Shown in pieces: positions 35,192 through 35,752 of a stretch of DNA of 64,000 bases (the first letter of the stretch is position 1; every line of letters starts with the position of its first letter). The notes under the pieces were generated by a model. That model was not told where the DNA came from. It made no database searches and was given only the letters and a program-made list of their open reading frames with translations. The stretch spans positions 398,934-462,933 of the forward strand of contig JBFWNU010000004.1 of the NCBI GenBank assembly GCA_050250895.1. Direction: 5' to 3'. Source of the stretch: Vulcanimicrobiota bacterium (GTDB taxonomy: Bacteria > Vulcanimicrobiota > Xenobia > Xenobiales > JADMJV01). The position numbers were made by a program, and so were the translations under genes.

Positions 35192-35752
35192 TCAGGCTAA
35201 TTCCGTCGTTCCGCGAGGGCGACTACCGCCCGCCACCTGGGTGTCGAAGTCGAGCTCGGGGCCCCGGGGACGGCTGCCCCCGGCCACCTGGGTATCGAAA
35301 TCGAGTTCGGGACCGCGCGGACGGCTGCCGCCAGCGACCTGGGTGTCAAAATCGAGTTCGGGCCCTCGCGGACGGCTGCCGCCGGCCACCTGGGTGTCAA
35401 AATTGAGTTCGGGCCCCCGGGGACGGCTGCCGCCGGCCACCTGGGTGTCAAAATTGAGTTCGGGCCCCCGGGGACGGCTGCCGCCGGCCACCTGGGTGTC
35501 AAAATTGAGTTCGGGCCCCCGGGGACGGCTGCCGCCGGCCACCTGGGTGTCGAAATTGAGGTCGGCGCCCAATCCTTCGCGAACCTTGCCGGTGTCAGCC
35601 GAGGCTGAACGGGCAAACGAGGCGGCCTGGCTAGAGGGCGCTTTGACTGGCGCGTTGGCTTGACCACCTTTGGATTTGGAAGCCTCAGGGGGCTTGGTGG
35701 TGCGCTTGGGTCCTTGAGGCGGAGTCCCGCCCGAGCCGATTTTCTTAGCCAT
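35192..35752 (-). CDS. Putative multi-cassette RiPP precursor peptide (186 aa, 7 x 17-aa repeats)
   Basis: AGGAGG RBS before ATG 35752; low-complexity leader then 7 x L(N/D)FDTQVAGGSRPRG(PE/TT); first gene of the tailoring-enzyme operon. Confidence 0.8.
   Translation of the reverse strand: MAKKIGSGGTPPQGPKRTTKPPEASKSKGGQANAPVKAPSSQAASFARSASADTGKVREGLGADLNFDTQVAGGSRPRGPELNFDTQVAGGSRPRGPELNFDTQVAGGSRPRGPELNFDTQVAGGSRPRGPELDFDTQVAGGSRPRGPELDFDTQVAGGSRPRGPELDFDTQVAGGSRPRGTTELA
35204..35560 (-). repeat. Seven tandem 51-bp coding repeats
   Basis: Contiguous 51-bp units without spacers; differences are mostly synonymous. Confidence 0.95.

Follow-up and report, generated by a model that had tools for sequence, protein, structure and literature searches.

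We analysed a stretch of 64,000 nucleotides from the genome of a Vulcanimicrobiota bacterium (contig JBFWNU010000004.1), hereafter called the window, and describe a minus-strand gene at 35192..35752 (ATG at 35752-35750, stop at 35194-35192) together with the enzymes coded next to it. The product of the gene (P0001, 186 aa) has the sequence MAKKIGSGGTPPQGPKRTTKPPEASKSKGGQANAPVKAPSSQAASFARSASADTGKVREGLGADLNFDTQVAGGSRPRGPELNFDTQVAGGSRPRGPELNFDTQVAGGSRPRGPELNFDTQVAGGSRPRGPELDFDTQVAGGSRPRGPELDFDTQVAGGSRPRGPELDFDTQVAGGSRPRGTTELA. Judged from sequence, it is probably the multi-core precursor of a system of the RiPP type (peptides made on the ribosome and modified after translation), of an uncharacterised family, with a core arginine as the predicted target of an arginase-family enzyme of the same operon. 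Together with its enzyme set the precursor seems to represent a peptide family, not yet described, whose members are made on the ribosome and modified by enzymes. A first-pass annotation, made from the letters of this DNA, had pointed to a strong AGGAGG ribosome-binding site, and this Shine-Dalgarno sequence is read on the minus strand at 35759..35764, 6 nt before the ATG. The layout that it gave is likewise matched exactly by the translation: an N-terminal leader of 64 aa, rich in Lys, Pro, Ala and Ser (35561..35752, minus strand), is followed by seven units of 51 nt or 17 aa (35204..35560, minus strand, by Tandem Repeats Finder and alignment of the units), which read four times LNFDTQVAGGSRPRGPE, twice LDFDTQVAGGSRPRGPE and lastly LDFDTQVAGGSRPRGTT, with ELA at the end. 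Units 1 to 4 occupy 35560-35510, 35509-35459, 35458-35408 and 35407-35357, and units 5 to 7 occupy 35356-35306, 35305-35255 and 35254-35204. For 35226-35570 Tandem Repeats Finder gives a period of 51, 6.7 copies, 92% matches, no indels and a score of 541. The 9.5-Mb genome holds one copy of the gene.

On aligning the seven 51-nt units, unit 2 was found identical to unit 3 and unit 1 one silent C/T change away from both, as had been noticed earlier, while unit 4 carries 2 silent changes. Across all seven units 18 of the 51 columns vary. Codons 3-15 (FDTQVAGGSRPRG, 39 nt) contain 11 of these, every one a third position with synonymous changes only; that all 11 should land by chance on the 13 third positions available has a probability of 4.7e-8, a figure which assumes independent columns, an assumption that gene conversion may break. 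Amino-acid differences among the units are confined to N or D at unit position 2 and to the change of PE to TT that ends the last unit. It is therefore the peptide of the precursor rather than its DNA that is conserved, i.e. there is protein-level selection, as claimed earlier for a multi-cassette precursor. The silent-only variation also indicates that translation takes place in the frame of 35192-35752(-) and not in the overlapping open reading frames (ORFs) 35197-35667(-) and 35241-35663(+). A match of the precursor to the CHZ domain (histone chaperone, PF09649) reached 41.9 bits for the whole protein, yet no single stretch passes; the score is a sum over the seven repeats and was treated as an artefact. 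Scanning for promoters and terminators gave a result no better than shuffled sequences. It may be noted that a database entry of 109 aa (P0002) is identical to precursor residues 1-109 and ends within unit 3. It looks like a gene call cut inside the repeat array of another assembly or contig, and this ending implies that the repeat number may be mis-assembled in short-read data.

The precursor heads a minus-strand operon in which two decarboxylases, an arginase-family enzyme and a further enzyme that depends on pyridoxal phosphate (PLP) follow in the order DC1, RRE-arginase, DC2 and U537, with a gap of 5 nt between the precursor stop and the DC1 start. DC1 (33954..35186) is a DapDC-like decarboxylase of fold type III (DapDC/ODC fold; PF02784, E 3.5e-18; PDB 1knw, 2.2e-22). 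DC2 (31767..32936) is its paralogue, a second DapDC-like PLP decarboxylase (PF02784 and PF00278; PDB DapDC, 1.4e-18), with an uncertain start codon and an ORF that overlaps the end of the arginase gene by 97 nt. The RRE-arginase (32840..33976, 378 aa from a TTG) matches PF00491 over residues 115-374 (E 7.2e-50); its start codon is also uncertain, the database form P0003 beginning 20 aa downstream. All three enzymes stay below the curated NCBIfam cut-offs of housekeeping families: DC1 scores 101.2 bits where lysA requires 297.9 and 45.1 where nspC requires 409, DC2 reaches 116 against the 297.9 of lysA, and the RRE-arginase falls below the SpeB agmatinase equivalog cut-offs with 115.8 against 174.3 bits (TIGR01230) and 131.8 against 302 (NF002564). 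The operon is therefore no usual one for lysine or putrescine.

Residues 1-82 of the RRE-arginase (33731..33976, minus strand) were folded alone with AlphaFold2 (AF2; pLDDT 84.7), and the model has, in order, four strands, three helices and one strand. Foldseek against the PDB gave as its top match TbiB1 with its leader (5v1v, E 2e-4, TM 0.62/0.71), followed by further matches to lasso B1 6jx3, TigE, MccB, CteB, LynD, TruD, ThcOx and PqqD, and across the leader-binding PDB matches the TM by query is 0.57-0.63. By this model the domain folds as a RiPP recognition element (RRE), which fits the earlier reading in which each unit carries a recognition sequence. The strands followed by a three-helix winged bundle are shared with TbiB1, the MccB clamp, LynD and PqqD; unlike lasso B1 and other RREs, the domain in the window is fused to a ureohydrolase and gives no Pfam PqqD signal. 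The catalytic domain (32855..33634, minus strand, by PF00491 and alignment) carries GGDHS, DAHSD and DVDCLEP. These correspond to the metal-binding motifs GGDHS, DAHxD and SxDxDxxDP that the available text of PMC10028609 gives for the arginase/agmatinase superfamily, and place the enzyme in PF00491 by its motifs; all 24 aligned homologues of the long form show the same residues in the metal-ligand columns (GGDHS, DAHxD, DxD). The model of the RRE-arginase (AF2 pLDDT 85.6) has agmatinases as its best PDB folds. About 110 extra N-terminal residues are common to a subfamily of proteins of about 400 aa from Curtobacterium, Plantibacter, Streptomyces, Pseudomonas and others, whose alignment was the basis for folding residues 1-82. 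A modelled complex of the RRE-arginase with precursor residues 150-186 scored 0.27/0.20 against a mark of 0.32 and was made without controls, and speaks neither for nor against binding. In the literature, the supplementary lists of biosynthetic gene clusters of PMC8784127 and PMC12703449 not being covered, we found no description of this gene set or of an RRE joined to an arginase of PF00491. As a side observation, a metagenome-assembled genome of Pseudomonadota (locus L002, 7536-9059) codes for an arginase-family protein that is much extended at its N-terminus, the extension including by eye an RRE-like stretch, and no DC1, U537 or OXY2 (a small oxygenase coded beside the operon in the window) lies nearby; other pathways, too, may make use of RRE-type ureohydrolases.

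The link between precursor and enzymes, which the first-pass annotation had assumed, is both physical and evolutionary, since besides the 5-nt gap to DC1 the same arrangement was found across phyla in distant genomes. A long-form arginase is present in 1 of 401 Streptomyces genomes (locus L092), where the gene order is an aKG-HExxH peptide beta-hydroxylase, a 56-aa ORF, DC1, U537, two ABC exporters, the RRE-arginase, a GNAT enzyme and two small oxygenases. Compared with the window, the E-values are 1.3e-101 for DC1, 3.3e-79 for U537, 8.2e-49 for the RRE-arginase and 2.3e-61 for OXY2, and DC2 of the window also matches DC1 of this Streptomyces locus (E 1.9e-42). The core of DC1, U537, two ABC genes and the RRE-arginase is also seen on metagenome contigs L132/L133 and L161, and the arginase-family protein of L161 starts with residues identical to the Curtobacterium protein P0004. 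The actinobacterial aKG-HExxH enzymes score 40.3 and 39.5 bits with the peptide beta-hydroxylase model TIGR04267, i.e. at its cut-off of 40; this enzyme is a RiPP hallmark of the actinobacterial versions and supports the assignment of the precursor. The two exporters are of the peptide/bacteriocin-exporter type.

In L092, L132/L133 and L161 a single-core ORF of 53-60 aa stands directly upstream of DC1, with the endings ...GTRAAGN, ...GSRPSGN and ...GGSRPRQIS. A two-motif regular expression run over 172 loci matched these small ORFs and no others. A profile of the three small ORFs retrieved six precursor clusters from a set of 5.8 billion proteins, called 'hypothetical protein' where named, which are MSNITELESNLSDLFASFDVDVAEESAQGSTDVIQIDAREIRIDLVGAMGTRAAGN, MSNVEELELALSDVFASFDVVVDGETAEEVEAADVREIRANLASLAGSRPSGN and MSITELESNLSDLFASFDVDVAEEGVQKSTDVIQIDAREIRIDLVGSMGTRASGN (clusters 1-3) and MSPTAVYELESALAALDDFSGWDVVVPDTAEAAMTVERRDVIEITSEFSTLGGSRPRQIS, MSITELESSLSDIFASFDVDVAEETAQASSAVLEIDTREIRVDLVGAMGMRAAGN and MSNITELESALSDVFASFDVEVAEEGVREAEMAQADVREIRMDMSVLAGSRPSGN (clusters 4-6). 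All six finish with G-x-R-(P/A)-x-(G/Q) and one or two more residues. The glycine and the first arginine alone are invariant; S, T or M precedes this arginine, and variation extends to the second arginine and the proline of the SRPRG of the window. A comparison of homologous precursors had been proposed earlier as a check, and it leaves G-x-R constant in all six clusters with the surrounding residues variable. The leaders share ELE..L..(L/V)..F....[FW]DVxV, and the 64 N-terminal residues of the precursor in the window have no similarity to these actinobacterial leaders. The 17-residue unit can be aligned in two ways, either to the last 15 residues of the Curtobacterium-type precursor, where 7 positions agree, GGSRPR among them (BLASTP E 0.027), or with its FDTQV on the [FW]DVxV of the homologous leaders, and under either alignment it looks like a compacted recognition-plus-core module. 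The window version has seven cores, DC2 and the M3 peptidase described below, in which it differs from the actinobacterial clusters, and in the sequences compared the family is otherwise single-core, its multi-core form being derived and lineage-specific.

The earlier proposal that each unit holds a recognition motif and a short Arg-bearing core is reasonable in the light of these homologues, which end in G-x-R(P) and carry [FW]D[VT]xV in their leaders, but the exact core that it named is not upheld. Only the first arginine among the Arg and Pro residues of the suggested core SRPRGP is invariant, the second arginine and the proline being variable in the homologues. The reading of VAGG as the end of a double-glycine leader fails on the same comparison, as GG is replaced by AMG, LAG or SMG. 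Double-glycine processing finds no enzyme either: the ABC proteins of L092 have ABC_membrane and ABC_tran only and no C39 peptidase, and the window has no ABC homologue. The analogy to the FxLD motif of lanthipeptides was dropped, since no lanthipeptide family (LanB/LanC) was matched among the 10 cluster proteins scanned.

We infer the pairing of substrate and enzymes, the order of reactions, all of the chemistry, the processing and the product as follows. The 17-residue unit, multiplied sevenfold by tandem duplication, would consist of a recognition stretch E-L-x-F-D-T-Q-V and a core G-G-S-R-P-R-G around the invariant arginine, which is likely the target of modification. The arginase-family enzyme would dock on the precursor via its fused N-terminal RRE, and its intact binuclear-metal ureohydrolase site would convert the core arginine to ornithine; it is the presence of an RRE on a ureohydrolase, together with arginine as the sole invariant functional residue of the core, that points to this peptidyl Arg to Orn conversion, which is established for the unrelated OspR family. 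U537, which resembles the Cys/Met gamma family, might then move a 3-amino-3-carboxypropyl group onto the new side-chain amine of ornithine, and DC1 might strip CO2 to leave an aminopropylated (polyamine-like) ornithine. This aminopropylation chemistry, i.e. aminocarboxypropylation of the Orn amine and then decarboxylation, is drawn by analogy and is put forward tentatively, as a possibility that we doubt more than we believe. The small 2-oxoglutarate (2OG) oxygenases would hydroxylate and peptidases would separate the units.

The analogy on which the last steps are modelled is to two known modules. In the available text of PMC10491745 and PMC11350588, Mur24 of muraymycin biosynthesis is a PLP-dependent enzyme that transfers an aminocarboxypropyl group to an amine and Mur23 is a type III PLP decarboxylase, while MccD and the MccE decarboxylase act on the RiPP microcin C, MccE also bearing a GNAT domain. 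As far as these texts go, Mur24/Mur23 and MccD with the N-terminal domain of MccE are alike in that a 3-amino-3-carboxypropyl group is installed on a nucleophile and trimmed to aminopropyl by a type III (DapDC/ODC-fold) PLP decarboxylase, and it is these parallels that led us to propose the same sequence of reactions on ornithine. The transferases differ: U537 is like the Cys/Met gamma family, Mur24 like ACC synthase, and MccD has a methyltransferase fold. Also, the acceptor in our scheme would be a proposed peptidyl ornithine, and the chemistry here is a proposal from the gene set.

The first step has its parallel in the OspR-type peptide arginases (landornamide; KspR/PhaR of selidamides; PbsE of biphenomycin; FlmR/OhkR), in which the Arg-bearing core of a ribosomal precursor likewise adjoins an enzyme of the ureohydrolase superfamily. 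For the selidamide phaeornamide the available text of PMC8784127 gives the order arginase (Arg to Orn), 2OG hydroxylase and GNAT, and a 2OG oxygenase and a GNAT enzyme are also found near the cluster of the window. The OspR-type enzymes are, in the parts of the sources at hand, PF12640 proteins (PMC8784127) with metal ligands at the start, near the N-terminus (PMC12257519, PMC12703449), and form atypical dimers with no fused RRE (PMC10028609). The window enzyme is instead of PF00491, agmatinase-like and with an 82-residue N-terminal RRE, and PF12640/UPF0489 was matched by 1 of its 24 homologues, at E 0.2. The cluster also differs from the OspR-type systems in having no lanthionine synthetase, MNIO or NHLP/Nif11 leader. 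As to the repeated cores, several recognition-plus-core cassettes per translation product are known from multi-core RiPP precursors such as the cyanobactin PatE and the UstA-type repeats of fungal dikaritins, of which the enzymes and processing proteases are unrelated to those of the system described here.

U537 (30328..31803, minus strand, 491 aa, with the ORF open up to 31941) appears to be a divergent fold-type I PLP enzyme of the Cys/Met-metabolism type, which alone gave no match in Pfam, NCBIfam or a direct PDB search. A profile of 48 relatives reaches O-acetylhomoserine sulfhydrylase 3ri6 at 1.8e-4, with its N-terminal half only, and also 5ijg of the Cys/Met-metabolism PLP family (2.2e-4), as well as gamma-lyases of cystathionine and of methionine; the Cys/Met family accounts for 36 of 40 chains listed, and the match spans the SSGMaA and DtT motifs. 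In the ESM Atlas U537 lies beside PF01053 clusters by features and structure (TM 0.58-0.63), and K278 in SGLKLDQQG is invariant in all 48 sequences. The family counts 421 representatives at 50% identity. A DapDC-like decarboxylase is its neighbour in 16 of 82 loci, and most of 80 metagenome loci have U537 standing alone by unrelated genes such as GlnD, MutS and PhaC. Some members are fused to other domains (P0142 to a Ser/Thr kinase and an FGE-sulfatase domain, P0187 to Mur-ligase domains, P0133 and P0164 to small methyltransferase domains), which hints at diverse acceptors. In two loci of an AT-rich metagenome organism (L167, 2511-5089; L168, 5833-8411) a DC2-like decarboxylase (E 3e-50) is directly followed by a U537 homologue (8e-41), and the pair is preceded by a 346-aa protein in whose N-terminal part a GGGPAG motif for dinucleotide binding is seen by eye; these loci showed no small ORF with an Arg core.

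Several of the results weigh against a modified multi-core peptide. The cluster was found in none of 60 other related genomes, which leaves nothing to compare it with inside the lineage. Pfam models for PqqD and other RREs match none of the 24 long-form arginases; these sequence models are blind to the domain, and the RRE assignment is structural. The catalytic domain is nearest to enzymes of small molecules, namely agmatinases, guanidino-acid hydrolases and proclavaminate amidinohydrolase. Taken alone, the similarity of the unit to the actinobacterial precursors is weak (the above BLASTP E-value over 15 residues, and an hhalign probability of 3.9%), and the link to that family therefore rests on synteny. 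Neither the exporters nor the aKG-HExxH enzyme of the actinobacterial clusters is present in the window, and the end product may differ for this reason. No decarboxylase adjoins U537 in 66 of the 82 loci, several of which lie by housekeeping genes, so that U537 is not intrinsically a peptide enzyme, and no RRE can be recognised in DC1 or in U537.

The peptide might instead be a sacrificial template, a mere scaffold on which the arginine is modified and from which peptidases such as the M3 enzyme free the modified amino acid, DC2 then giving a polyamine-type amine, with seven products per translation. We hold this to be rather unlikely. Other scaffold peptides do yield small molecules, and DapDC-type decarboxylases require a free alpha-amino acid, which here would be supplied only by proteolysis or by the grafted aminocarboxypropyl group itself. 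U537 together with a decarboxylase also occurs in other genomes without a precursor. It is the seven cores, the additional DapDC-like DC2, the M3 oligopeptidase gene and the lack of exporters and aKG-HExxH enzyme, all unlike the actinobacterial clusters, that keep a sacrificial template under consideration. Yet the M3 peptidase is assigned to the cluster by position only, and the two peptide/bacteriocin-type exporters suggest that in the actinobacterial clusters the peptide is exported.

It is distinctly less probable that the arginase-family enzyme does not act first, and that it either removes urea late from a modified guanidine or is tethered by its RRE while acting on a guanidino metabolite in free form. 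Urea is removed from already modified guanidines of small molecules by proclavaminate amidinohydrolase and aminopropylagmatine ureohydrolase, the former is among the nearest relatives of the catalytic domain, and an enzyme below every curated equivalog cut-off leaves its substrate open. But RRE-bearing enzymes usually act early, on the leader-attached precursor, no functional residue of the core but arginine is invariant, and the peptide offers no other free amine to the PLP enzymes. A coincidence, in which a disordered or structural repeat protein unrelated to the enzymes lies beside an ordinary polyamine operon, is very improbable and was already disfavoured, for although the whole protein has no detectable homologue, low-complexity repeat proteins are frequent in the relatives and a decarboxylase paired with an agmatinase resembles putrescine synthesis, the ureohydrolase carries a fused RRE, small ORFs with the same C-terminal motif are placed alike in 3 distinct loci that are distant, the enzymes score far under the LysA, NspC and agmatinase cut-offs, and 5 nt separate the precursor from DC1.

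If the precursor is indeed of the multi-core RiPP type with arginine as the target, the RRE-arginase would represent a second, independently evolved class of peptide arginases, in which a canonical agmatinase-type fold was recruited by RRE fusion, and ribosomal peptide chemistry would gain a PLP enzyme pair of a kind seldom seen in RiPP pathways. The cluster also gives a first functional handle on the unannotated U537 family, and its seven-cassette form would show a single-core bacterial RiPP family turned multi-core through tandem duplication. A wider proposal, which we consider speculative and do not expect to hold as a whole, is that polyamine-like chemistry is reached here by way of the ribosome: the RRE-arginase would unmask ornithine on an encoded template; U537 would stand for a widespread, unrecognised family of PLP-dependent aminocarboxypropyl transferases that aminopropylate amines together with a DapDC-like decarboxylase, which on the peptide would give N5-aminopropyl-ornithine side chains; and in this bacterium the seven-cassette template with DC2 and the M3 peptidase would free a polyamine-type product, seven per translation.

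Searching 5.8 billion proteins gave no full-length relative of the precursor, the sole match being the truncated copy P0002. Neither the precursor nor the RRE-arginase was found in the 60 related genomes, which include one of the same genus at 98% completeness. Weak matches of the precursor in 3 of the 60 (L082, L083, L084) proved to be unrelated low-complexity repeats. At L082 (1488-1700, relative G043) a large membrane protein opens with four tandem 17-residue GDQGAPKATPPGSEPGR-type repeats and the gene upstream of it bears a similar repeat, the sequence being unrelated to the precursor; proteins that open with a tandem array of 17-mers may be a frequent feature of the lineage. A scan of genome contigs with the arginase alignment gave at least 600 matches, mostly ordinary agmatinases, and none of 80 loci taken from them had U537 or the RRE region; one of these (L018) has a weak DC2-type match (E 5.2e-8). 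A search with P0026 in 68 genomes of the family Chromobacteriaceae gave no match at E <= 1e-30. At 59-67% throughout, the G+C content marks no island. The cluster may plausibly have been acquired by transfer.

On the plus strand the genes for the M3 peptidase, OXY1 and OXY2 converge on the precursor operon. The M3-family metallopeptidase (26917..28737; PF01432, E 1.1e-8) has no match in PDB or NCBIfam, and we infer its membership of the cluster from position and strand alone. OXY1 (29090..29788) is a 2OG-Fe(II) oxygenase (PF13640, E 8.2e-7, 30.3 bits for a cut-off of 27), and OXY2 (29686..30333, probable start 29785) a small one (PF13640, E 1.2e-3) whose Atlas record begins at residue 34 and has the 2OG fold. 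By predicted structure the Atlas clusters nearest to OXY2 (29785-30333) are mostly small phage-encoded 2OG oxygenases; a similarity to clusters of HalD/BesD-type amino-acid halogenases/hydroxylases (TM 0.68-0.71) is a lead only. Upstream of the precursor lie a divergent GNAT acetyltransferase (36203..37102, plus strand, 299 aa; PF00583, E 1.8e-9), with no significant similarity to the GNAT of the Streptomyces cluster, and a 356-aa protein with an HEVGH motif (37124..38194, minus strand), for which searches gave no family and no PDB relatives. Placed by position alone, both are uncertain members of the cluster.

Farther upstream, 38230-41696 (plus strand) holds two genes that overlap by 4 nt, one ATPase-like (452 aa) and the other helicase-like (703 aa). 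This is the only part of 23000-42500 with DNA-level matches (67-68% identity), which come from five genomes of the same family and begin at about 38.3 kb, and the two genes mark the conserved backbone beside the cluster. Two large minus-strand proteins, at 24510-26405 and 44961-47708, have by eye a similar N-terminal stretch with ...GTVDS.G.F.LDLA... in both, the former having a Ser/Thr-kinase-like C-terminus and the latter continuing with TPR-like repeats; these are possibly paralogous signalling proteins on either side of the cluster.

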